64,000 bases of DNA from Candidatus Eiseniibacteriota bacterium (GCA_036507005.1 DASXQT010000010.1:285-64284); one strand, 5' to 3'. Counted from the first letter of the stretch, positions 8,097 to 51,978 are shown. Translations and numbers: made by a program. Notes: generated from the sequence alone by a model not told the origin.

Positions 8097-9419
8097 TCAG
8101 TCCGCCTTCGCCGCCGGCTCCTCCACCACCCAGCGCACCGCGCGCGAGCACGGGCAGGTGCCGCCGACGCGCTTCAGGCGCGGCATCTTCATGATCGCGT
8201 CCTTCACCGTCATCTCGCCCGCCACCACCTTGCGCAGGGTCTCCACGTACATGCGCATGTCGCGAGTGGTGAGGTAGGCCTCGGGCAGGTGCTTCGCGAG
8301 GTGGCGGACGTACTCGTCGAGGTCGCGGAGCTCCTCGCCCTCGACGCCCACCATGGTCCAGGCCGGCTCGCCCTTGCGGCGGAAGAAGCGGCGGTCGGGC
8401 ACGTGGACCAGGTCCGCCCACGCCACGCCGTCGTGGCGGCCGCGGTCGCGCTCGAGCTCGTCCAGGACCTGCTCGACCTTCTCGGGGCCGTAGGCGGGGA
8501 AGCGCGCGCGCAGGTAGCGCGCGTTCAGGTCGCGCACCATGCGGCGGATCTCCTCGATGTAGAGATCCTGGGCCTCGCGGTTCTTCATGTCCTTGAAGCC
8601 GAACTTCACGTTGGTATCGCCGCCGCGCTCGTCGCCGAACATCTCGAGCCCGCGCGGCAGCCACTTGTTGATCGACTTCTGGATCACCTGCATCGTGACC
8701 AGGGGATCGCCCTTCGCGGCGCGCTGCGCCCAGCGCCGCAGCGGGATCACGCCCGCCGCGAGGTGGAACGCCTCCTCGCGCAGCATGGGCGGCATCGAGT
8801 CGGCCATCGGCTTGTAGGCGCACACCTTCTGCATGGTGAGCTGGTACTTGCCGACGCGGTCGATGATGGCGGCGAAGCAAATGTTGTCGATGAACGAGTC
8901 GTACTCGAGGTTGAACGCGTCGAGCACGTGCGAGCCGGTCTGCATGGAGAGAATCTCCTCGACCATCTCCTCGCCCTTCACGCCGCCCGAGACGTGGGTC
9001 CAGTCCTGCGACAGGAGCAGGTGGAACATCTGGTAGCCGTGGCGCAGCTCCTCGGCCATCACCCGCAGCACCCAGAAGCGGTCCTCGTCGTCGGCGGCGC
9101 GGTGCAGCGTGCCGGCGTGCTGCTGGATCGAGCCGAACTCGGTCGAGGCCTGCGCGCGGATGATGGCGAGCAGGTGCTTGGCCTGCTCCTCGGTCAGCTC
9201 GTCGGGCCGGAGCCGCTTCTTCTCGCCCTTGTGGTCGCCGATCTGCACCAGGCTCGCGGTGCCGAGCTCGAGCTTGGCGCACAGGCAGAACGGCTCGTCC
9301 TTGGGGAAGTAGCGGTCCCATTCGGAGAGCAGCGAGTCGTAGTCGGGCATCCAATGGCGGCGCCAGTGCTCGACCGCGTCGTGGTACTTCCTCTCCAGCG
9401 TGACCTGCCCGACCTTCAT
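8097..9419 (-). CDS. BoxB-like di-iron oxygenase (benzoyl-CoA 2,3-epoxidase component B family)
   Basis: Start at internal ATG 9419 (MKVGQV). VMAEELRHGYQMFHLL, LDAFNLEYDSFIDNICFAAIIDRVGKYQL and PMLREEAFHLAAG resemble the BoxB regions VNVEEGRHLWAMVYLL, FNEKTPDWL..DRDGKFQL and FMLTEEAHHLFVG. These are E-x-x-H di-iron ligands. Confidence 0.7.
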   Translation of the reverse strand: MKVGQVTLERKYHDAVEHWRRHWMPDYDSLLSEWDRYFPKDEPFCLCAKLELGTASLVQIGDHKGEKKRLRPDELTEEQAKHLLAIIRAQASTEFGSIQQHAGTLHRAADDEDRFWVLRVMAEELRHGYQMFHLLLSQDWTHVSGGVKGEEMVEEILSMQTGSHVLDAFNLEYDSFIDNICFAAIIDRVGKYQLTMQKVCAYKPMADSMPPMLREEAFHLAAGVIPLRRWAQRAAKGDPLVTMQVIQKSINKWLPRGLEMFGDERGGDTNVKFGFKDMKNREAQDLYIEEIRRMVRDLNARYLRARFPAYGPEKVEQVLDELERDRGRHDGVAWADLVHVPDRRFFRRKGEPAWTMVGVEGEELRDLDEYVRHLAKHLPEAYLTTRDMRMYVETLRKVVAGEMTVKDAIMKMPRLKRVGGTCPCSRAVRWVVEEPAAKAD

Positions 9420-9427
9420 CCCGCTCC

Positions 9428-9889
9428 TCAGCTTCCCGGCGCGATGCGCATCTCGAGCGCCTCGAGCGTGGAGGGCGCAAAGCCCAGCGCCTTCAGGAAC
9501 CCGGCGATCGCGGGATCGCGGCGATCCACCAGGGTCCGCACCGCGACGGCGCCCGAGGCCTGGAAGTGCCGGCAGATGGCCTCGAACATAAGCTTTCCGA
9601 AGTCCCGGCCGCGATAGTCGGGGTCGATCCCGAATCGCTCGATCCATCCGCTCGGCTCCTCGAGCCCGAACTCGCCCGCCCGCAGGTCGCCGAGCAGGAA
9701 ACCTACCACCCGGCCACCGACTTCGGCGACCTGGGAAGCGCCGGGGTCGCGGCGGAGGTAGTAGCCCACCCGCCGCTCCCAGACCTCCGGGCGGTAGACC
9801 CCGGTGATCCTCTCGTCGATCTTCACGATGCCGCCGATGTCCAGCTCGTCCAGCGGCCGGATGCGGGCAGGGGCTTCAACCTGGGGCAT
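9428..9889 (-). CDS. GNAT family N-acetyltransferase
   Basis: Start at ATG 9889 (MPQVEAP). The acetyl-CoA binding pattern VVGFLLG..RGRDFGKLMFEAICRHFQASG is present. Confidence 0.75.
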   Translation of the reverse strand: MPQVEAPARIRPLDELDIGGIVKIDERITGVYRPEVWERRVGYYLRRDPGASQVAEVGGRVVGFLLGDLRAGEFGLEEPSGWIERFGIDPDYRGRDFGKLMFEAICRHFQASGAVAVRTLVDRRDPAIAGFLKALGFAPSTLEALEMRIAPGS

Positions 9890-42305: not shown

Positions 42306-44192
42306 ATGAAGCGCAAGCGCAGCGAGCCGGGCGATCCGGAGCGCGGCCCGGCCGCGGACCGCGCGGCGGGCACGGAGCCCCGCGCTGCGGCTCCGGCGCC
42401 CGTGCCGGGCGCGGGGCCGGCGCCCGTTCCACCGACGGCCGCGGACCGCGCGGCGGGCGTGCTGGCCGCGGCGCTCGCGCTGCTCGCGGTCGCGCGCCTC
42501 GCGCTCGGGCTGCGTCCCTCGATGTGGCTGTGGGGGCTCGACGCGCTCGCGTTCGTGCCCCCGGTTCCGGGCTGGCTGCTGTGGGCGCTCGCCGCGCTCG
42601 CGCTGGTCCCGGCGCTCGCGCGCCCGGCGGGCGCGGCGCTCGCGCGCGCCGGAGACGCGATCGCCGACCGGCCCGCGCTCGCGAGCTTGGCACTCGGCGC
42701 GTTCCTGGCTACGACCGTGCTCCTGCTTCCCGATCGGCTCGAGCTGGTGGGTGACTACCTGCTGCGGGTCGGGACCGCGCGCGGCCAGATCCCGACCGAC
42801 ACGGTGTTCCCCCAGGCCCTGCCGCTCGACCTCGCCCTCCACTACACCGTGCCCAGCCTGTTCGCGCACGGCTTCACCGGAGATCCCAACGACGTTTCGC
42901 GCGTCCTCGGCGCGATCGAGGCCGCGATCCTGGCCGCGCTCGCGGTCGCCTTCGCGCGCGCGCTCCGGCTGCGTGGGGCGGCGGCGGCCGCGGCGGTCGC
43001 GACGGTCACCTTCGGCGGGGCGCTCGGCATGTTCACGGGGTTCGCCAAGGTATTCGGCGAGCTGTGCCTGGTCGCCACCGCCTTCGGCGCCTTCGGCATC
43101 ACCGCCGTGCGCGACGGGCGCGGGCTGCTGCCGCTCTCGCTCGCCGTGAGCGCGGGCCTCGTGCTCCACCGCTCGGCGCTCGCGTTCCTGCCGCCGCTCG
43201 CCGTGGTGTGGGCGGCGTGGCTCCGCGCCGACGGCGCGGGCGGAGCGTGGCGGCGCCCGGCCGCGATCGCGGCGCTCGCGCTCCCGCCCGTCACGCTCGC
43301 CCTGATGCTGCCGCGCATCCGCGCGGCGATCGAGAGCACCGACCGCCTGCACTTCGCGCGCGCGGGCGCGGGGCCGGCGCAGATCCTGGGCGCGGCGTTC
43401 CGCGGACTCCACCTCGCCGACCTCGGGAACCTCCTGCTTCTGCTTTCGCCGCTCGCGCTCGCCGGGATTCCGCTCGCGCTCGCGCTCCCGCCCGCGCTGC
43501 GGCGGCGGCCCGAAGCCCTGGTGCTGCTCGCGCTCGCCGTTCCGTTCGCGGGGCTCCTGCTCTTCGTCCACCCGCGCCAGGGCCAGTTCCGCGACTGGGA
43601 CGTGTTCACGCCCGCCGCGGTCGCGCTCTCGCTCCCCGCCGCCTGGCTGATCGGCGAGACGCTGCGCGCGCTGCGCCACGCCTGGCTCGCGGCCGCCGTG
43701 GTGCTCGGAACGCTCGCGCCCGCGGTGCAATGGCTGATGCACAATCACGACCTCGACCGCGGGATGGCGCGGGTCGAGGCCTACATCGCGGGCCCGCCCG
43801 CGCGCGGGGACGACGAGCGCGCCACGCTCCACAACTTCCTCGCGCTGCGCGACGAGGAGTACGGGCGGCTGGACGCCGCGGCGGAGAGCTACGCGCGGGC
43901 CGCCGCGCTCGCGCCGAGCCCGCGCATCCTGCTCGAGTGGTCGCTGGCCGAGACGAATCGCGGGCAGTACGCGAAGGCGCAGGGCATCCTGCGCGGGCTC
44001 GTGGAGCGTGCGCCCGGCCTGATGATGGCGTGGTCGCAGCTCGCCTACGTCTCGTATCAGCTCGGCGACACCGCCGAGTGCGTGCGCGCGGCGCGCGGCG
44101 CGCTCCGCATCGACCCCGGCCTGGCCGAGGCCCGGGGTCTGCTGAGCCGCCTCGCGCCCCCGGAGAGCGCGCATGTCGCGCCCGCTCGCTGA
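42306..44192 (+). CDS. polytopic membrane protein with C-terminal TPR domain, paralog 1 of 3 (unassigned family; glycosyltransferase-like architecture)
   Basis: About 10 hydrophobic helices are followed by TPRs (YARAAALAPSPRILLEWS..; AWSQLAYVSYQLGD). Motifs shared by all three paralogs: SMWLWGLD, VGDYLLR, FPQALPLDLALHY, LHRSALAFLP, GQFRDWD. Confidence 0.75.
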   Translation: MKRKRSEPGDPERGPAADRAAGTEPRAAAPAPVPGAGPAPVPPTAADRAAGVLAAALALLAVARLALGLRPSMWLWGLDALAFVPPVPGWLLWALAALALVPALARPAGAALARAGDAIADRPALASLALGAFLATTVLLLPDRLELVGDYLLRVGTARGQIPTDTVFPQALPLDLALHYTVPSLFAHGFTGDPNDVSRVLGAIEAAILAALAVAFARALRLRGAAAAAAVATVTFGGALGMFTGFAKVFGELCLVATAFGAFGITAVRDGRGLLPLSLAVSAGLVLHRSALAFLPPLAVVWAAWLRADGAGGAWRRPAAIAALALPPVTLALMLPRIRAAIESTDRLHFARAGAGPAQILGAAFRGLHLADLGNLLLLLSPLALAGIPLALALPPALRRRPEALVLLALAVPFAGLLLFVHPRQGQFRDWDVFTPAAVALSLPAAWLIGETLRALRHAWLAAAVVLGTLAPAVQWLMHNHDLDRGMARVEAYIAGPPARGDDERATLHNFLALRDEEYGRLDAAAESYARAAALAPSPRILLEWSLAETNRGQYAKAQGILRGLVERAPGLMMAWSQLAYVSYQLGDTAECVRAARGALRIDPGLAEARGLLSRLAPPESAHVAPAR

Positions 44193-46020
44193 GACGCGGC
44201 CCGGCGCCGCGCGCGCGCGGGCCGCGGGCGCGCGCGGGGCGCTGCCCGCCGAGCCATCGCGACTCGATTCCGCGGCCGCCGGGCGCGCCGCGCTCGCCGC
44301 ATGGGCCGCGCTCGTCGCGCTCGCCGGGGCGCGCGCGGCGCTCGCCTTCGCCCCCTCGACCTGGGCGTGGAGCCTGGCGCTGCTGCGCTTCCTGCCGCCC
44401 GTGCCGGGCTGGGGACTGTGGGCGCTTTCGGCCGTGACGCTCCTGCCCGCCGTCGCGCGGCTCGCCGCTCCGGCGGGCGCGCGCTTGGGCGACGCGGCGG
44501 CGCGTGCGCCCGCGCTCGCGGCTGCGGCGTGGGCCGCGGGCGGCGCGGCGTTGGCGTGGAGCCTTCCCGACCGCGCCGGGTTCGTCGGCGACTTCCTGCT
44601 GCGCGAGAACACCCTCGCCACCCAGGGCGTGTCGCTCGCGGAGTGGTATCCGCAGGCGCTCCCCCTGGACCTCGCGATCCACCACCACTTCGCCCGCGCG
44701 CTCATGCTCGCGACCGGCGCGACCGCGGCCGACGCGGGGCGGCTGATCGGCGCCGGCGACGCCGCGCTCATGGGCTGGCTCGCCGCGCTCTTCGCGCGTG
44801 AGCTCGCGCTGCGCGGGGCGGCCTCGTTCGCCGCGAGCGCCGCGGTGTTCGGGACCGGAGCGCTCACGCTCTTCACCGGCTACAACAAGGCGTTTGCCGA
44901 GATGACGCTGCTGGTCGCGGCGATCGGCATCCTCGGCCTCGGCGCCGCGCGCACCGGGCGCGGGCTCGTGCCCCTGCTCGCCGTCGCGGCCGCGGGCCTC
45001 ACGCTCCACCGCTCGGCGCTCGGCGTCCTGCCCGCGCTCGCGCTCGCGTGCGGGTGGGCGCTGCGCGCGGGCGGCCGCGCGGCGCTGAGGCGGCCCGCGA
45101 CCTGGGTCGCGCTCGCGCTGCCCATCGTGTCGCTCGCGTTCATGGTGCCGCGCATCGTCCACATCGTGCGCCACGTGGACCCGATCCACTTCACGCCCGC
45201 CGAGCCGGGACGGAGCGCCCTGGCCTCCGCGTTCGCGGGCGCGCGCCCCGCCGACATGCTGAACCTGATCGTGATGCTGGCGCCGCTCGCGCCCGTGGCC
45301 CTGGCCGCCGCCTTTGCGCTCGGCCCCGCGCTGCGCCGGCGCGAGGTCGCGCTGCTCGTGGCACTCGCCGCTCCCTTCGTTGCGCTCATCCCGTTCCTCC
45401 ACGCGCAGCAGGGCCTGTTCCGCGACTGGGACGACTTCGCCGCGGGCGGCATGGGCGCAACGCTGCTCTCCGCGTGGATCCTGGCCGAGACCCTGCGCGC
45501 CGCGCGCGCGCGTTCGTGGCTCGCGGTGCCGCTCGCGCTCGCGGCGCTCGCCCCCAGCGCGCAGTGGCTCGTGCACCACACCCAGCCGGAGCGCGCGCTC
45601 GCGCGGGTGCGCGCGTTCGTGGAGGAGCCGCCGTCGCGCACCTCGTTCGAGCGCGCGATGACCTGGCAGTATCTCGGCATGACCTACCTCGCCATGCACC
45701 GCGGCCCGGAGGCTGCGGACGCCTACGCGCACGCCGCCGAGCTGCTGCCGAGCCCGTACATCCTGCGCCAGCTCGGCATCGCCCAGTCGCTCGCGCGCCG
45801 CTACGGGAGCGCCGTCCGGACGTTCCGCACGCTCCTCGAGCGCGTGCCCGGCGACATCACCGCGCTGCGAGGGCTGATGCTGATGAGCCTTCCCGGCCAC
45901 GACACCGCCCAGGCGCGCGCCGCCGCCGAATCGCTGCTGCGCGTCTCGCCGCGGGATCCGCAGGCGATGGAGTTGCTGCGCCAGCTCGAGCGCGGGATCG
46001 GCAATGCGCGGCCGCGGTAG
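44173..46020 (+). CDS. polytopic membrane protein with C-terminal TPR domain, paralog 2 of 3
   Basis: The start overlaps the upstream gene by 20 nt. The same motif set is present (STWAWSL, VGDFLLR, YPQALPLDLAIHH, LHRSALGVLP, GLFRDWDDF). Confidence 0.75.
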   Translation: MSRPLAETRPGAARARAAGARGALPAEPSRLDSAAAGRAALAAWAALVALAGARAALAFAPSTWAWSLALLRFLPPVPGWGLWALSAVTLLPAVARLAAPAGARLGDAAARAPALAAAAWAAGGAALAWSLPDRAGFVGDFLLRENTLATQGVSLAEWYPQALPLDLAIHHHFARALMLATGATAADAGRLIGAGDAALMGWLAALFARELALRGAASFAASAAVFGTGALTLFTGYNKAFAEMTLLVAAIGILGLGAARTGRGLVPLLAVAAAGLTLHRSALGVLPALALACGWALRAGGRAALRRPATWVALALPIVSLAFMVPRIVHIVRHVDPIHFTPAEPGRSALASAFAGARPADMLNLIVMLAPLAPVALAAAFALGPALRRREVALLVALAAPFVALIPFLHAQQGLFRDWDDFAAGGMGATLLSAWILAETLRAARARSWLAVPLALAALAPSAQWLVHHTQPERALARVRAFVEEPPSRTSFERAMTWQYLGMTYLAMHRGPEAADAYAHAAELLPSPYILRQLGIAQSLARRYGSAVRTFRTLLERVPGDITALRGLMLMSLPGHDTAQARAAAESLLRVSPRDPQAMELLRQLERGIGNARPR

Positions 46021-47800
46021 AGGCGCGGCGCCAGCCCGCGCGACGCCGGCCGCCGCGCCCGAGGCGGCCGCGCGCGCCGCGTCGGCGCTCTGGTGGGTGC
46101 TCGCGATCTCCGCGGTCGCGCGGCTCGCGCTGGCGTTCGTTCCCTCGATGTGGCTCTGGGGCCTCAACGTTCAGCGCTTCCTCGCGACGGCGGCGGCGTG
46201 GGCGCCATGGGCGGCCGCCGCGCTGGCGCTTCATCCCGCGGTCGCCCGGGCGCTCCTCCCCGCGCTCGCGCGCGCGGGCAATGCGCTCGCCCGCCCGCGC
46301 GGAGTGGTGGTGGCGGCGCTCCTCGCCGCGATCCTCGTGCTCGCTCTGCCGGACCGCGTGCGGTTCGTCGGCGACTTCCTGCTGCGTCAGGGTACCGTGG
46401 AGCAGGCGGGGCGGCCCGCCGTGCTCTTCCCCCAGGCGCTGCCACTCGACGTGCTCCTCCACTACACGCTGCCGCGCACGCTGGTCGACATGCACCTGCT
46501 CGCCGCCAACGGCGCCGCGCGCGCGCTCGGGGCGCTCGAAGCCGCGCTGCTCGCCGCGCTGGCTGTCGCGTTCGCCCGGGGGCTGGCGATGCGCGACGCG
46601 GCGGCGCTCGCCACCGCCGCCGTCGTGTTCTTTGGTGGCACGCTCACCATGTTCACCGGGCTCGGCAAGGCATTCACCGAGATGGTGCTGCTGGTCGCCG
46701 CTCTCGGCGTCTTCGGCCTGCGCGTGCTGCGTGAGCGGCGGGGGCTCCTGCCGCTGGCCGCGACCCTCGCCGCCGGGCTCGCCCTCCACCGCTCGGCGCT
46801 CGGGCTCGTGCCCGCCGCGGCCCTCGCGTTCGCCTGGGGCGCGAGGCCGCATGCGGCCGAGGGCGAGGCGGTCCTCCGCCATCCGAAGGCGGAGTGGCTC
46901 ACCGCCGTCTCGATCGCGGTCCTCGCGCTCGCCGTGATGCTGCCGCGCATCGTCGCCACCATCCTGCGCTGGGACCCGATCCATCTCACTCCCCCCGAGG
47001 TGCGGGAGCAGGGCGTGGTGCGCGCCGCGTTCGCCGGCACGCGGCCCGCCGACCTGCTGAGCCTGGTCACCGCGCTCTCGCCGCTCGCGCTCGCGATCCC
47101 GCCGGTCGCGATCCTGCTCGGGCGCATCCCCGGTCGCGGGCGCGAGCTGGCGCTGCTCTCGGCGCTCGCCGTGCCCTTCGTGCTCAGCATGCCCCTGCTT
47201 CATCCCGCGCAGGGGCTGTTTCGAGATTGGGACGACTTCGCCGGCGCCGGGGAGGCGCTCTCGCTCGTCGCCGCGTGGCTCGTGGCCGAGACCCTGCGCG
47301 CGGCCCCTGGCCGCGCGTGGCTCGCGAGCGGCGTGACGCTCGCGGCCACCACCGCCGCGCTTCAGTGGCTCGCGCACTTCACGGACATCGAGCGCGGGCT
47401 AACGCGGGTCGAGGCGTTCATGAGCGAGCCGCCGCGGCGCACCGACGTCGAGCGCGGCAAGACCTGGGACTACCTCGGCATCCGCAACTTCCGTCTCGAG
47501 CGCTGGGACGCCGCCGCCCGCGCGTTCGCCCGCGCCGCCGAGACCTCGCCCAGCCCGCGCATCCTGCTCGAGTGGGGCACCGCCGAGCTGCGCCGGGGCG
47601 ACTTCCGCGCCGCGCAGCCCCTGTTCCGGCGCGTGATCGCGGCGAACCCGAAGGACGTCCACGCCTGGTCCGGGCTCGCCGCCGCCGCCATGGCGCTCGA
47701 CCAGCGCGACGAGGCGCGGCGCGCGGCCGAGGAGGTGCTGCGGCTCAGTCCTGGCGATGCGTTCGCGCGGCGGACGCTGGAGCGGCTCGGCGCGCCGTAA
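46004..47800 (+). CDS. polytopic membrane protein with C-terminal TPR domain, paralog 3 of 3
   Basis: The start overlaps the upstream gene by 17 nt. Motifs SMWLWGLN, VGDFLLRQGT, FPQALPLDVLLHY, LHRSALGLVP, GLFRDWDDF. A hairpin CGCCCCCG-n13-CGGGGGCG follows at 47830-47859. Confidence 0.75.
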   Translation: MRGRGRGAAPARATPAAAPEAAARAASALWWVLAISAVARLALAFVPSMWLWGLNVQRFLATAAAWAPWAAAALALHPAVARALLPALARAGNALARPRGVVVAALLAAILVLALPDRVRFVGDFLLRQGTVEQAGRPAVLFPQALPLDVLLHYTLPRTLVDMHLLAANGAARALGALEAALLAALAVAFARGLAMRDAAALATAAVVFFGGTLTMFTGLGKAFTEMVLLVAALGVFGLRVLRERRGLLPLAATLAAGLALHRSALGLVPAAALAFAWGARPHAAEGEAVLRHPKAEWLTAVSIAVLALAVMLPRIVATILRWDPIHLTPPEVREQGVVRAAFAGTRPADLLSLVTALSPLALAIPPVAILLGRIPGRGRELALLSALAVPFVLSMPLLHPAQGLFRDWDDFAGAGEALSLVAAWLVAETLRAAPGRAWLASGVTLAATTAALQWLAHFTDIERGLTRVEAFMSEPPRRTDVERGKTWDYLGIRNFRLERWDAAARAFARAAETSPSPRILLEWGTAELRRGDFRAAQPLFRRVIAANPKDVHAWSGLAAAAMALDQRDEARRAAEEVLRLSPGDAFARRTLERLGAP

Positions 47801-47829
47801 GCCCGCGCGTCACCGATTCCAAACAGGGA

Positions 47830-47859
47830 CGCCCCCGAGTCCTTTCAAGCCCGGGGGCG
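47830..47859 (+). terminator. terminator-like GC hairpin
   Basis: CGCCCCCG-agtcctttcaagc-CGGGGGCG, 30 nt after the stop at 47800. There is no U-tract. Confidence 0.4.
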
Positions 47860-48094
47860 CCTGGTGATCGAGTCCAGCTCTAGACCGCAGCGGCCGGCTG
47901 CTCGGCGCCGTCCTCGATGGTGTGGTGAGGGAGCGCGCGAAGCTCGACCTCGGTCAGCTCGAGGCCGAGACGCCGCTGGGGGTCGAATCCCGGGGGACCT
48001 TTCAAGGCGGGAAGATGTCGGGGCCGGAGTAGAAGGTGCTACGCTCCGTAGCGCAATCGTAACACCCACGTTGAGTCTGTGCAGGAGACCGAGC

Positions 48095-48904
48095 ATGGCC
48101 CCATCGGTGATTGATTCGCTTCAGGGAGTGGTCGTCCATCAAGAGGCCCTGATTCTCGCCCTCAATCATCGTGTCGACTCGCTGCTGGCCGCCGTTCCCG
48201 ACACCGTGCGAGACACCATCTGGGCTGGTTTCATGGACCAGCGACCACATGGACTCGGAATCGCGCCAAAGGACGTGATCGGATGGGTGGTGACTGCTGC
48301 CGGCATTTTCGCGGCAGGCTGGGTCGCGCGGACTGGCTGGAATCGATCAGACAGTGCGGGACGCCGTTTGCAGAAGGATCGTCACGAAACCGAAGAACGG
48401 AGGATGCGCGAGCAACTCGTGCTTCGGATCCGCGGAACACTGGAGACGATGAGAGCCACCGCCGCGTCGACGCTGAAGAAGGACGCCACTCACCCGATCA
48501 ATCCAGAGACCATGAACAACATCCTCGTCGCCTGGAAGCGCTTCGACCGCGTGTCGGACAACTTGTGGCTGCTCAATGACCTCGTGATGCAGGACCGGAT
48601 CGAGACAATCACGGAGTTCGGGCGCATGACTGCCGAAAAGATCAGGGAGGACGAGCAGCGGTTCCGCGAGACCCGCGTACTCCTAGGGCAGAGGTCTCCG
48701 GAGGCGTTGATTGTCCACCCCTCGCTCGTCACGCGGGCCGTGGACCAGCGCACAAAGCTGCTGACGGTCGTGACGAAGCTCCGTGACACGACAGCTGGGC
48801 TTCTGATCGATTTCAACGCCAAATGGCCGCCGGTGGCCGGGCACACTGAGCGCACCGAACCCGAAACTAGCAGCGACGAAATGCCTCCGGTCAATCCGAG
48901 CTAG
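48095..48904 (+). CDS. hypothetical protein (one predicted TM helix), islet gene
   Basis: SD GCAGGAG before ATG 48095. TM segment VIGWVVTAAGIFAAGWVA. No family recognised. The 3' end overlaps the convergent gene by 4 nt. Confidence 0.55.
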   Translation: MAPSVIDSLQGVVVHQEALILALNHRVDSLLAAVPDTVRDTIWAGFMDQRPHGLGIAPKDVIGWVVTAAGIFAAGWVARTGWNRSDSAGRRLQKDRHETEERRMREQLVLRIRGTLETMRATAASTLKKDATHPINPETMNNILVAWKRFDRVSDNLWLLNDLVMQDRIETITEFGRMTAEKIREDEQRFRETRVLLGQRSPEALIVHPSLVTRAVDQRTKLLTVVTKLRDTTAGLLIDFNAKWPPVAGHTERTEPETSSDEMPPVNPS

Positions 48905-49473
48905 CGCCGGACCCCGCGTGAGCGTGACCGTCGGGGAAACCATTGAAGAAAGAGAGGGCCACGGTAGGCGTCCAACTTTCGGCGCAGCGTGTAGAGATCC
49001 CCGATTGCCGTGAGGAACGGCATCGTGCCGAGGGACGAGATGCCCGCTGGAAGCAACGACGTCGGGCTGCCCTCGGGCACAAATGGCAGTTGGGCGGGCT
49101 TGTAGTTCTGCTGTTGCCAGTAGGCGGTCGAGTAGGCGCTCTTGATCTTGTCTCGGATCTCCATCTCGAGCGGCGGGTTCTCGAGTTCAGAGACGCGGGC
49201 TTCCGAATCGACAAGTTCCTTTAGCCACGTAACGCACTGAGACAGGTGCCAAGGCTGGTAATACTGAGCCTGCATCTTCTGTTGGTTCTCAGCTTCCTTC
49301 AATCCGTCGGAGATCTTTCCGAAGTAGTGGTGCAGGTGGCGAGCTGTAGTCTGACGCCTTACGGCTCGTTGAAACCAGTGCCGGAAGTAGATGGCGTACA
49401 CACTCACGGCTGCGCCACCGATGAACGCTGTGATCGTCTTTGGCGTTATCCAAGCGGATAGCCACGACGGCAT
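48901..49473 (-). CDS. hypothetical membrane-anchored protein, islet gene
   Basis: N-terminal TM helix (ITAFIGGAAVSVYAIYF). Lower-GC codon usage. No family recognised. Confidence 0.55.
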   Translation of the reverse strand: MPSWLSAWITPKTITAFIGGAAVSVYAIYFRHWFQRAVRRQTTARHLHHYFGKISDGLKEAENQQKMQAQYYQPWHLSQCVTWLKELVDSEARVSELENPPLEMEIRDKIKSAYSTAYWQQQNYKPAQLPFVPEGSPTSLLPAGISSLGTMPFLTAIGDLYTLRRKLDAYRGPLFLQWFPRRSRSRGVRR

Positions 49474-49794
49474 TGTGTTCGCTCCTCCTTGATCGCATAC
49501 GCCCCCTTTCCCACTGAGAGCGCAGCTTCGAAAGATGGCGGCGAATGAGCCTCGTTAGTTGGCGTTCCAGAGCAGGCCGTAGACCAAGTCGACTGAGCGT
49601 GGGTGGGCCTGGCTTTTGTCTACCCTCGAACTTCAGCCGGTTTTGGTGACGCGGACTCGCTGACGACCGCTAGAGACTGTTTGGGCAACAAGAGTCGGCC
49701 GCGGGATGCAGCCGCGACCAGCTTCTGGCTTCGAAACGGAGTTTTCGTGCTCTGCATCAGCATGCGTTCAGCGTGGCAGGTCCATGGGCGTCGT

Positions 49795-50496
49795 CTAGGG
49801 TGACTTGTCCACAGGCGCCCGTGAGTCCACGATCGACAGCAGATGGCTCGCGAGGATGATCATCTCAACCGACTCCTTCGGTTGAAGGTCGATCGGACGA
49901 TGACTGTGTGGGTTCTTGTACGATCCGATTGCCCCGACAAAGAGGTCTCGCAGCGCCTGTCGCTCGCCACCCTCGCGATCCATGTTAGTCAGCGGACCGC
50001 CTTCGGGATTGAACGCCGCCTTCATAAGGGCGACACCGATGTCCTTGTCATGGAAACCGCCGGCCGCGCGCACCGAAATCTCGACCTCCCGGAACGCCTC
50101 AAACACCGCGTTCTGGTAATCCCCGCGAGCAAATGCCTTCCAAACACGACTCAGAAGCTTCGGATGGAGCAGGTCTTTCGAAAGGAGGGTCGCGAGGCGC
50201 ATATCAGCAAACGACCCCGCAGCAGCGGCCTTGCCTTTCTTCGAGACGGAGTACCAGTCGTCAGTGGACCTCGTGAGGAAGCCCTGGGCTTCGAGAATGC
50301 TCCAAGCTCCCAGGAAGAGCTGCTCGACCCACTCTTCGCGGCCGAATGCTCTCCAACAGTCTCCCCGGAAGTTGTAACGGTTGAGCTTGGCCCTGTTCTC
50401 TTCGCTGGTCACGAGGAAACGTAGCAGCGCTTCGGAAATGTCCTCAGGCGCCAGTTCACGTACCACGGCGACTGGAAAGCTCACTTGCAAGGTCAT
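49795..50496 (-). CDS. TIGR02391 / Hypoth_Ymh (PF09509) family protein
   Basis: The C-terminal region LHPKLLSRVWKAFARGDYQNAVFEAFREVEISVRAAGG...IGVALMKAAF...LRDLFVGAIGSYKNPHSHRP...EMIILASHLLSIVD fits the Hypoth_Ymh consensus (AVFEAFK.VE..VR, G..LM..AF, G.....RNP.AH, ASHLL..VD). The start is taken at the internal ATG 50496. The longer ORF to 50604 would overlap the integrase start head-to-head. Confidence 0.65.
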   Translation of the reverse strand: MTLQVSFPVAVVRELAPEDISEALLRFLVTSEENRAKLNRYNFRGDCWRAFGREEWVEQLFLGAWSILEAQGFLTRSTDDWYSVSKKGKAAAAGSFADMRLATLLSKDLLHPKLLSRVWKAFARGDYQNAVFEAFREVEISVRAAGGFHDKDIGVALMKAAFNPEGGPLTNMDREGGERQALRDLFVGAIGSYKNPHSHRPIDLQPKESVEMIILASHLLSIVDSRAPVDKSP

Positions 50497-50596
50497 CTCT
50501 AGGGCCTTCCTGACACCGACCCTCCTTCGGGGGGGCCCTGTACCGGTTCGTGGAGGCTCGGGAAGGATAGTTCCGATGCCGAAACGACCAAAAAAC

Positions 50597-51150
50597 ATGG
50601 TCAAACACGGGAGAATGTACTACTTCCGCGACAAGGCCGGCGGGCGTGATCGCCGCGTCTCCGCCCCCGGAACGATTACGGCGAAGCACTCGTCCGGTTT
50701 CGATCTTTGAAACGCGGTCGCCGTTCCCGCGGCGACTGCCGAGGATTCAGGAGCGACCGCCGGATCGACTGAGCGACGGCGAGATCGAGCGGGTGTTCTC
50801 GCTCGAGGATCCGTACGGGTTCATCGGACGATTCCTGGTCGGCACTGGCCTGCGGTGGGGCGAGCTGACAAGGGCCCGGTCTTCTGATGTCTCGGGCAGC
50901 CGGCTCCGCCCCTTGCGGAACGCGGACGGCTTCAATGTCCAGATTCGCGGGCGGGCAGGGATTCCGGGCTTCAATGCTCACCAGCTTCGGCACACATTCG
51001 CGTGCGGGTAGCTGGATGCTGGCGGAAGTCTGGCCGCTCTTCAGGAAATCCTCGGGATCGCCTCGATCGTGACGACGCAGCGTTACGGCCGTCTCGGCGA
51101 GGCGCACGCGCAGGCCGAAGCAGCACGATTGCAGGGGACGGCACCTCTCT
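50597..51150 (+). pseudogene. tyrosine recombinase/phage integrase remnant (fragmented: frameshift plus in-frame TAG)
   Basis: Frame 2 encodes the integrase N-terminus (MVKHGRMYYFRDKAGGRDRRVSAPGTITAKHSS). Frame 0 encodes the catalytic-domain pieces (LSDGEIERVFSL, FLVGTGLRWGELTRARSSDV, HQLRHTFACG), then a TAG at 51013-51015, then LDAGGSLAALQEILGIASIVTTQRYGRL (the conserved LLGH.S..TTQ.Y.H tail). The total is far shorter than an intact ~350-400-aa integrase. Confidence 0.7.
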
Positions 51151-51171
51151 AAGTCGTGTACCTACGGCCCC

Positions 51172-51220
51172 GGAGAGGTGCGAGAGCGGCTGAATCGCGC
51201 GGTCTCGAAAACCGCCCAAG
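51172..51220 (+). tRNA. tRNA-Ser(CGA) 5' fragment (acceptor 5' strand, D-arm, anticodon arm); no T-arm or 3' acceptor, so probably a pseudo-tRNA or att remnant
   Basis: GGAGAGG-TG-CGA-GAGCGGCTGAA-TCG... GCGGT-CTCGAAA-ACCGC. U8 and the D-loop GG are present. AGCGGCTGAA and GGTCTCGAAAACC are near-identical to E. coli tRNA-Ser(CGA). Downstream sequence lacks GGTTCGAATCC or the acceptor complement. Confidence 0.5.
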
Positions 51221-51294
51221 AGGACAGATTCGTTCGCCCATGGCCTGCCGACGCCTCCGCCTGCTCGCCGACGCCGCGCCTAGCGGCGGGCGCC

Positions 51295-51978
51295 TCACCA
51301 ATACAAGCTGAGCCCCAGCGTGTACGTCATCAGGTTCCCGCCGATGTGCGCCGCGACCACGCGCGCGTACTCGGCCTCGAGGCCCAGTCCCAGCGACTGC
51401 CGTATCCTGAAGTCGTAACCCGCGGCCGCGGTGGCGGCGAACCCGGCGTCCTGTTGCCATACCCCTCCGGAGCCGGCGGGCGCGAGGGTCTCCACCCGCT
51501 CCTCGCACACTCCGCCGCCGCCGCGCACGTAGAAATGGCGCGCGCTTGGGTACGCCGTGGCGGTCGCGGTGATGATCTCGAGCCGGCGGTCGAGGCCCGA
51601 CTGCGAACCAGTCCAGCCCCTGGCCTGGAACCCCGCGAGCACGCCGGGCGCCACAACGTGTCCGACACGAAACTGCGTCATGGTTCCGGACTTGCGGCCG
51701 AGCGGATCGCCTTCCATGTCCAGGCTGCCGGCGCCCATGTTCAGGCCCAGCACCCAGGCGCTCGGCTTCAGCGGCGTGCGCTCCTTCGGGGCTTTCGGCG
51801 CCTTCGCGACCTTGGGTGCCTTCTCGGCTTTCGGCGCCTTGGGCGGCTTCGGCGCCTTCTCGTGCTTCTCGGCCGCGGGCTTCGACTCTTTCGGGGTCTT
51901 CGACTTTGCCGCCGCCGGCGAAGGAAGCGCGAGGGCGGCGCACAGGAGGAGCAGCAGGGGCAGCGGAATGCGCTTCAT
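51295..51978 (-). CDS. outer-membrane beta-barrel protein with N-terminal Lys/Pro/Ala (KAPK) repeat linker
   Basis: Signal peptide MKRIPLPLLLLLCAALALPSPAAA. KAPKPPKAPKAEKAPKVAKAPKAPK repeats. The C-terminus ...YTLGLSLYW has the terminal aromatic of an OM barrel. Confidence 0.7.
   Translation of the reverse strand: MKRIPLPLLLLLCAALALPSPAAAKSKTPKESKPAAEKHEKAPKPPKAPKAEKAPKVAKAPKAPKERTPLKPSAWVLGLNMGAGSLDMEGDPLGRKSGTMTQFRVGHVVAPGVLAGFQARGWTGSQSGLDRRLEIITATATAYPSARHFYVRGGGGVCEERVETLAPAGSGGVWQQDAGFAATAAAGYDFRIRQSLGLGLEAEYARVVAAHIGGNLMTYTLGLSLYW

Follow-up and report, generated by a model that had tools for sequence, protein, structure and literature searches.

The 64,000-nt stretch of DNA analysed here (the window; Candidatus Eiseniibacteriota bacterium, GCA_036507005.1 DASXQT010000010.1:285-64284) contains a decayed, horizontally acquired integrative islet of foreign origin, which fills the interval between two convergent host genes at 47801-51294. 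It comprises three intact cargo genes, the remains of a tyrosine integrase and, after a short conserved spacer on the same strand, the 5' half of a tRNA-Ser(CGA) gene. We propose that a small integrative element left this block as its fossil, that its tyrosine integrase belongs to a clade which targets tRNA genes in reversed (5') orientation, and that the half tRNA was borne by the element itself. We put the probability of this reading at roughly 0.7.

The foreign block measures ~3.2-3.5 kb, and the windowed GC content falls from 0.74-0.81 to 0.57-0.62 at ~48.0-51.0 kb. By segment, GC amounts to 0.736 in the left host DNA, 0.609 at 48047-51171 and 0.722 in the right host DNA, and GC at third codon positions (GC3) is 0.88-0.98 in the flanking host genes versus 0.71-0.75 in the island genes. 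A two-segment likelihood fit places the GC change points at 47997 on the left (support 47810-48033) and at 50626 on the right (support 50605-51235). The interval as a whole runs from the stop codon of a gene for a TPR-membrane protein to the stop codon of a convergent gene for a 231-aa protein. Within it, the low-GC body of the element (GC 0.61; 48047-51171), whose left end probably falls within 47997-48047, is preceded by a high-GC (0.69) non-coding stretch of 246 nt with two hairpins (47801-48046). At the other end, the half tRNA is followed by a high-GC (0.74) spacer of 78 nt that leads up to the stop codon of the 231-aa gene (51217-51294). Gene calls by the Joint Genome Institute match the layout of three open reading frames followed by integrase fragments.

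The flanking TPR protein, of 598 aa, assigns the host to Candidatus Eisenbacteria, and two related metagenome-assembled genomes (MAGs) of Candidatus Eisenbacteria show the site empty. In L003, whose flanking TPR protein shares 68% identity, only ~11 nt separate the TPR gene from the convergent homologue of the 231-aa gene, and in L004 (61%) the gap between the same convergent pair is ~4 nt. Since neither an island nor a tRNA lies between the flanking genes in these genomes, 47801-51294 is an insertion. In L075, the closest relative found, and in L076 (TPR 79%, MATE 84%), the gap is ~4.3 kb wide and holds eight unrelated genes, including NUDIX, amidohydrolase and DUF3788 genes (L075 1846-6208); this content indicates that the interval is a variable hotspot in this lineage, with three different contents among four relatives. 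No tRNA was found at the site in 18 related loci, L003 and L004 among them, nor in L075-L079. No retrieved comparison locus is homologous to either flank segment (47801-48094 and 51217-51294), and no direct or inverted repeats were found flanking the island, only chance-level pairs. The block thus combines an aberrant composition with a mobility gene and is missing from related genomes, as horizontally acquired islands are. An earlier sequence-only reading had described it as a decayed integrative islet, pointing to a fall in GC and codon usage over ~47.8-51.25 kb and to the comparison with related genomes as a way of finding the empty site. All of this is confirmed by the drop in GC from ~0.73 to 0.61, the lower GC3 of the island genes, the integrase pseudogene described below and the empty, tRNA-less site in L003 and L004.

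The mobility gene is a tyrosine integrase pseudogene at 50576-51152 (+ strand). Each single fragment lies under the Pfam cut-off; once joined, the fragments match PF00589 with 39.7 bits (E=5.7e-10; cut-off 27.1 bits) and recover 236 homologues (best E=3.6e-47), which places the gene among the PF00589 tyrosine recombinases by homology. We mapped the lesions against a relative of 330 aa, full-length relatives being ~330-340 aa long. Residues 1-29 are encoded at 50576-50662 and end in a frameshift, residues ~31-44 follow at 50671-50712, and ~99 residues of the N-terminal domain are then deleted before the match picks up again at 50715. A second deletion of 30 residues has taken the nearly invariant hairpin with the catalytic lysine (TKSGKVRRVPL), the codon of an invariant Trp has changed from TGG to TAG at 51009-51011, giving a premature in-frame stop, the LGH motif reads LGI, and ~35 nt are deleted at the 3' end. 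Catalytic residues are retained in TGLRWGE (R), HQLRH and TTQRY (Y), and the lysine hairpin is lost, so that the window has no intact frame with the full R, K, H-x-x-R, H/W and Y set. The survival of the integrase in pieces, with an in-frame TAG ahead of an LLGH-type tail, had already been noted from the sequence, and the mapped lesions at 50576-51152 bear this out. The element is no longer mobile: its integrase lacks the catalytic lysine and the N-terminal core-binding domain, and the frame is further broken by a frameshift and a stop. At least six lesions have accumulated in the integrase, whereas the three cargo genes are intact.

The half tRNA lies at 51172-51216 on the + strand and reads GGAGAGG-T-G-CGA-GAGCGGCTGAA-TCG-C-GCGGT-CTCGAAA-ACCGC. 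It holds the 5' strand of the acceptor stem, the D arm and a complete anticodon arm (GCGGT-CTCGAAA-ACCGC), that is, positions 1-44 only. A 43-nt probe from a bona fide tRNA-Ser(CGA) gene (L027) matches 51172-51214 with one mismatch, and none of 100 shuffles gave such a match. The earlier identification as a 5' half of tRNA-Ser(CGA) without T arm or 3' acceptor therefore stands, with 42/43 identity to real tRNA-Ser(CGA) genes. The variable arm, the T arm and the 3' acceptor strand of a complete tRNA-Ser cloverleaf are missing; ARAGORN and an Rfam E-value scan, the kind of search the sequence-only reading had proposed, report no tRNA at the locus, whole or partial, and no tRNA 3' half was found anywhere in the 64 kb. 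The right spacer at 51217-51294 shows no similarity to a tRNA 3' half (p=0.40). Three Logan contigs from two sequencing runs (L002, L080 and L081) end or start inside the half tRNA, at 51168-51193, with an overlap of 26 nt. These contig breaks may reflect a repeat shared with a genuine tRNA-Ser(CGA) gene, or strain variation.

What the half tRNA means becomes apparent from the relatives of the integrase, whose loci were collected by a metagenome scan and by look-ups of integrase homologues. The closest full-length homologue (P0002; L025) is separated by 20 nt from a complete tRNA-Ser(CGA) gene that follows it on the same strand. A complete, co-oriented tRNA gene 8-60 nt downstream of the integrase was found in 14 related loci, in every case in the same orientation. 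The tRNA is tRNA-Ser(CGA) in L025, L027, L028, L029, L032, L039, L040, L044, L047, L048 and L073, tRNA-Ser(UGA) in L034, L036 and L042, and tRNA-Arg(CCU) in L082/L083. The three target tRNAs share a near-identical anticodon stem, (C/G)CGGT...ACCG(T/G), which would fit a core site of the integrase at that stem-loop. Two of these loci deserve a description of their own. L073 (1290-1835) carries another fossil of the clade, an N-terminally truncated integrase beside an intact tRNA-Ser(CGA) gene. In L082 (7104-9520; also in L083), a single tRNA-Arg(CCU) gene lies between integrases on both sides: upstream an integrase of the 5'-type clade, accompanied by Replic_Relax and HTH_17 genes, and downstream an integrase of 397 aa on the opposite strand; tandem CGCGAAACT repeats occupy 8130-8220 of this locus.

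The DNA between integrase and tRNA is conserved as well. We aligned this region from 15 loci, the window (51102-51171) and 14 others (L025-L073). In 14/14 of the others, the 3' end of the integrase gene contains two tandem GGnCACA repeats, ~11 nt apart and coding for the ...VT..VT... tail of the protein, followed by a TTGAC/TTGCnC box; TAAGTCGTGTAnnnA plus 7 nt then lead to position 1 of the tRNA. The window retains the conserved integrase-to-tRNA spacer as GTCGTGTAnnnA plus 7 nt at 51153-51171 (+ strand), and the TTGAC box and both GGnCACA repeats are gone because of the ~35-nt deletion. The repeats may serve as arm-type binding sites or belong to a promoter.

Six further loci carry the integrase with only the 5' half of a tRNA, ending at or just past the anticodon loop or stem. 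In L026, whose integrase is the closest to that of the window, and in L041, the tRNA breaks off at position 38 (...CTCGAAA|cgtagc and ...CTCGAAA|gtttc, respectively). The match ends one base past the anticodon loop in L031 and three bases past it in L030. L049/L050 are decayed, with an integrase stub of 48 aa and a half tRNA whose anticodon loop is mutated (L049 7914-8138). The half tRNA-Arg(CCU) of L052, a viral contig, extends to position 46; the integrase/half-tRNA unit sits between a terminase gene and ParB genes, and 12 nt separate its half tRNA from the end of a sigma-70-type promoter (TTGCGA-16-TATGAT). Since phage genes flank it on both sides, we regard this unit as a phage attachment site (attP) inside a phage genome. 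Altogether, the integrase is joined to a complete or half tRNA in 20 related loci. Since the unit of integrase and 5' half recurs without a 3' half in relatives, in one case within a phage genome, the half tRNA of the window most likely belongs to the element, as its part of the att region. In layout, the clade has the integrase directly upstream of the tRNA and co-oriented with it, and its elements carry the tRNA 5' portion (L026, L030, L031, L041 and L052); the window shares both the layout and the spacer. The sequence-only reading had taken the position of the island 5' of a plus-strand tRNA fragment as a sign of a later deletion or rearrangement. This is not supported, as the order integrase, spacer, tRNA 5' end is the native layout of the clade.

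A second viral contig, the 73.6-kb L085 from IMG/VR, contains a tRNA-Ser(CGA) 5' half at 9521-9559 (- strand) that breaks after CTCGAAA, with no integrase upstream and a ParA-like gene on the far side. This complementary junction is a candidate left attachment site (attL), belonging to a large element of the 5' type whose opposite end was not found. A scan of viral contigs for complete tRNA-Ser(CGA) genes returned 59 loci, 0 of them with this integrase, and L084, an Eisenbacteria homologue of the integrase, was uninformative. In a comparison with collections of cultured phages (50,697 records) and plasmids (72,556 records), no integrase shares more than 30% identity with those of the clade, and the clade appears uncharacterised, having been seen only in uncultured soil, sediment and groundwater metagenomes.

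These layouts suggest how elements of this clade may integrate. In intact relatives, the integrase gene is directly followed, in the same direction, by the spacer and by a tRNA copy of the element's own that extends from position 1 to the anticodon loop or stem. Recombination would take place around the anticodon loop of a host gene for tRNA-Ser(CGA), tRNA-Ser(UGA) or tRNA-Arg(CCU), and integration would join the upstream region and 5' half of the element to the host 3' half, resulting in a working tRNA gene. The 5' half of the host gene would end up at the element's far end. Because the clade normally carries the 5' half of its target tRNA, the half tRNA of the window most likely came with the element. 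As the element sits between convergent host genes where relatives have no tRNA, this half would either never have been completed or would have lost its partner. How the element arrived is a separate matter. We weakly favour a route in which the integrase inserted it at a secondary site, with the element opened exactly at the core of its attachment (att) site, over integration into a tRNA gene followed by deletions and over the arrival of a fragment by a process that is not site-specific.

Several observations weigh against the proposal of an element-borne half tRNA. The relatives with an empty site are distant, their flanking proteins being 61-68% identical, and a tRNA gene may have been present in a closer ancestor. 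The tRNA match in the window is 5-6 nt longer (ACCGCC, completing the stem) than in L026 and L041, which would also be expected of a genuine tRNA that had lost everything beyond position 44; the attP of L052 also takes in the whole anticodon stem. No retrieved locus shows both ends of one element, and no second or displaced copy of the 5' half was found upstream of 12 related integrases, within the up to 10 kb retrieved. A sigma-70 scan of the Ser-type spacer in L027 gave no canonical promoter. At the window's own left end, the element is not marked by any significant repeat, and a region-wide alignment with the P' arms of five attP-type loci was not significant. A displaced host 5' fragment, which as a far-end repeat would be expected of a 5'-type element, is absent from the left flank (p=0.25 and 0.57). 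The one similarity that may mark the left junction is CGTAGCGCAA at 48047, a stretch of 10 nt that recurs immediately behind the point where the tRNA of L026 breaks off; the chance of such an anchored match is estimated at ~5e-3, and we consider it suggestive only.

Apart from this match, the left end contains a GC-rich hairpin directly after the TPR gene (~47827-47860), the 9-mer CCTTTCAAG in two copies (47841 and 47998), and a T-arm-like hairpin, CTGGG-GTCGAAT-CCCGG, with a 5-bp stem at 47974-47995. The last had been proposed, as a T-loop-like motif at ~47976-47994, to be the other att remnant. On that view, a classical tRNA-targeting island of the 3' type would have its second att site here. 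The motif exists: GGGGTCGAATCCC at 47978-47990 matches a T arm in 12/13 positions, and the GC change point at 47997 follows just after. However, the shuffle p of ~0.007 fails correction for 12 tests, the acceptor-side sequence is unlike that of tRNA-Ser, T54 is mutated, and ARAGORN and Rfam are negative. Moreover, the hairpin and the anticodon arm are each self-complementary, hence not the hybrid products of a crossover, and the clade duplicates the 5' half and not the T arm. The expected att partner is not a T-loop motif, because the repeat of this clade should be the 5' half or the anticodon loop. The polarity of the clade, the T54 mutation and the failure in multiple testing largely refute the hairpin as an att site, and we regard a classical 3'-type island as very improbable.

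Two other explanations accept the half tRNA as genuine and differ in where it came from. According to the model of the sequence-only reading, a resident tRNA-Ser(CGA) gene was hit by the element, and later deletions removed its 3' half and the displaced 5' half as the integrase decayed. The extent of the tRNA match to position 43-44, compared with 38 in L026 and L041, speaks for this, as does the absence of the 246-nt and 78-nt high-GC spacers from L003 and L004, by which the ancestral intergenic region would have been different. It is, however, rather unlikely in our view. It requires the gain of a tRNA gene at a position where 18 related loci and L075-L079 have none, followed by two separate deletions, of which neither a trace of the 3' half in the right spacer nor a trace of the displaced 5' half at the left end remains, and for a genome whose GC3 is >0.9, doing without tRNA-Ser(CGA) would probably carry a cost. 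A half tRNA that is the degraded resident target is thus not borne out, the unit being native to the integrase clade. Alternatively, a donor's cargo, integrase and first 44 nt of the tRNA may have arrived as one fragment, via illegitimate recombination or flank-mediated replacement at the hotspot. This would agree with the three different contents of the interval in four relatives, with the lack of a detectable flanking direct repeat or att partner, and with the att core, the whole anticodon arm, remaining unsplit at the right end. Yet the right end lies precisely where the anticodon arm stops, and the attP identity in the phage contig L052 stops there too, which would be a coincidence if the breakpoint were random, and the 10-nt match to the L026 P' arm lies at 48047, where a left junction made by the integrase would be expected. 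We therefore hold fragment arrival to be improbable.

The three cargo genes had been described as orphans, which is correct for one of them. The gene for a 190-aa protein with an N-terminal membrane helix (48901-49473, - strand) is an orphan and a singleton, its sole database match being itself in an Eisenbacteria MAG; searches of Pfam, PADLOC, PHROGs and NCBIfam gave no significant family, only sub-threshold Pfam matches (E 0.036-0.14) and DndC in PADLOC (E=0.0096). The 269-aa protein (48095-48904, + strand), by contrast with an orphan, belongs to a rare uncharacterised family with 40 cluster representatives at E<=1e-3 and has no match in Pfam, PHROGs, NCBIfam or PADLOC. A single membrane helix is predicted in it, and its AlphaFold2 model is an all-alpha helical bundle (predicted local distance difference test score, pLDDT, 88) that matched only generic helical bundles and no significant PDB fold. 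The 233-aa protein (49795-50496, - strand) is likewise no orphan. It matches Hypoth_Ymh above the curated cut-offs (PF09509, E=4.6e-24; TIGR02391, 63.8 bits) and is probably HEPN-like; in L033, a homologue with 54% identity is found at the corresponding place upstream of the integrase. PADLOC adds weak matches to PD-Lambda-3_B (3.5e-6) and Aga_HEPN (3.7e-4). As a PD-Lambda-3 system consists of A and B components, the weak B-like match (E=3.5e-6) falls short of one, and the neighbours of the gene gave no convincing match to a PADLOC model. The protein thus resembles the Hypoth_Ymh (PF09509/TIGR02391) HEPN-like proteins by curated match, and differs in that no known defence-system partner gene is present. 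That the cargo is intact beside a decayed integrase may reflect retention by selection.

The host genes around the islet have features of their own. The TPR gene is the last of three tandem membrane-plus-TPR paralogues at 42306-47800 (628, 615 and 598 aa; 46-47% identical pairwise), and related Eisenbacteria MAGs (L003, L005, L010 and L014) have similar arrays of two or three copies. On the other side, a repeat with a 9-nt period at 51767-51873, inside the 231-aa gene, encodes a lysine/alanine/proline-rich (KAPKAPK-like) linker after the signal peptide.

Elements that integrate into tRNA genes are well known, with HP1, P22 and pSAM2 as classical examples. Classical tRNA-targeting tyrosine integrases with a crossover in the anticodon loop were reportedly treated by Williams in 2002 (NAR 30:866). 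The present clade resembles the classical integrases in using a tyrosine recombinase, a probable att core at a symmetric tRNA stem-loop and an identity block that restores the tRNA, and also in that the target tRNA varies within the clade (Ser-CGA, Ser-UGA and Arg-CCU) over a near-constant anticodon stem. It differs in polarity: classical elements carry the tRNA 3' portion and displace the host 3' fragment, whereas those of the present clade bring the 5' portion along with the upstream region. In the portion of PMC10111431 that bears on this, the classical attP is described as carrying a replacement 3' segment of the target gene. Recombination at the 5'-distal part of tRNA genes is nevertheless known and, as stated in a passage of PMC6563490 citing Zhao and Williams 2002, much less frequent than at the 3' part. 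With the 5'-type Mesorhizobium element of Zhao and Williams, as summarised in that citing passage, our clade has in common the 5'-distal recombination, the supply of a replacement 5' portion and an integrase by the tRNA 5' end; it differs in being documented only in uncultured metagenomes, and the window copy in being a fossil at a tRNA-less site. This 5'-type, or reversed, tRNA integration is therefore a rare and already known kind, of which the window holds a decayed new member. As to its state, the islet is like other decayed islets and cryptic prophage remnants in its foreign composition, inactive integrase, retained cargo and absence from relatives. Such remnants usually lie beside the intact targeted tRNA, as in L073; here only the element's half tRNA is present, at a tRNA-less site.

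Taken together, we see about an even chance that an undescribed, widespread integrase clade of uncultured soil and groundwater bacteria and their phages systematically replaces the upstream region and 5' half of tRNA-Ser(CGA), tRNA-Ser(UGA) and tRNA-Arg(CCU) genes and so places host tRNAs under element control, and that its members may also land at tRNA-less sites, or be carried there, leaving orphan half tRNAs that annotation pipelines would misread as broken genes. Island-finding programs and annotators usually assume a duplication of the tRNA 3' end, so a clade of the opposite polarity would be missed or misread, as the difficulty of the sequence-only reading with the orientation illustrates. 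The half tRNA of the window is accordingly no evidence for a lost host tRNA gene. The islet itself is an immobile remnant; if any of it matters to the host, this is likely to be only the three intact cargo genes, which encode a Ymh/HEPN-like protein and two membrane-anchored helical proteins. In the clade at large, if the elements do supply the promoter together with the tRNA 5' half, the expression of host tRNA-Ser and tRNA-Arg would depend on element DNA, which would also explain why stubs of the integrase persist beside tRNA genes, as in L073.

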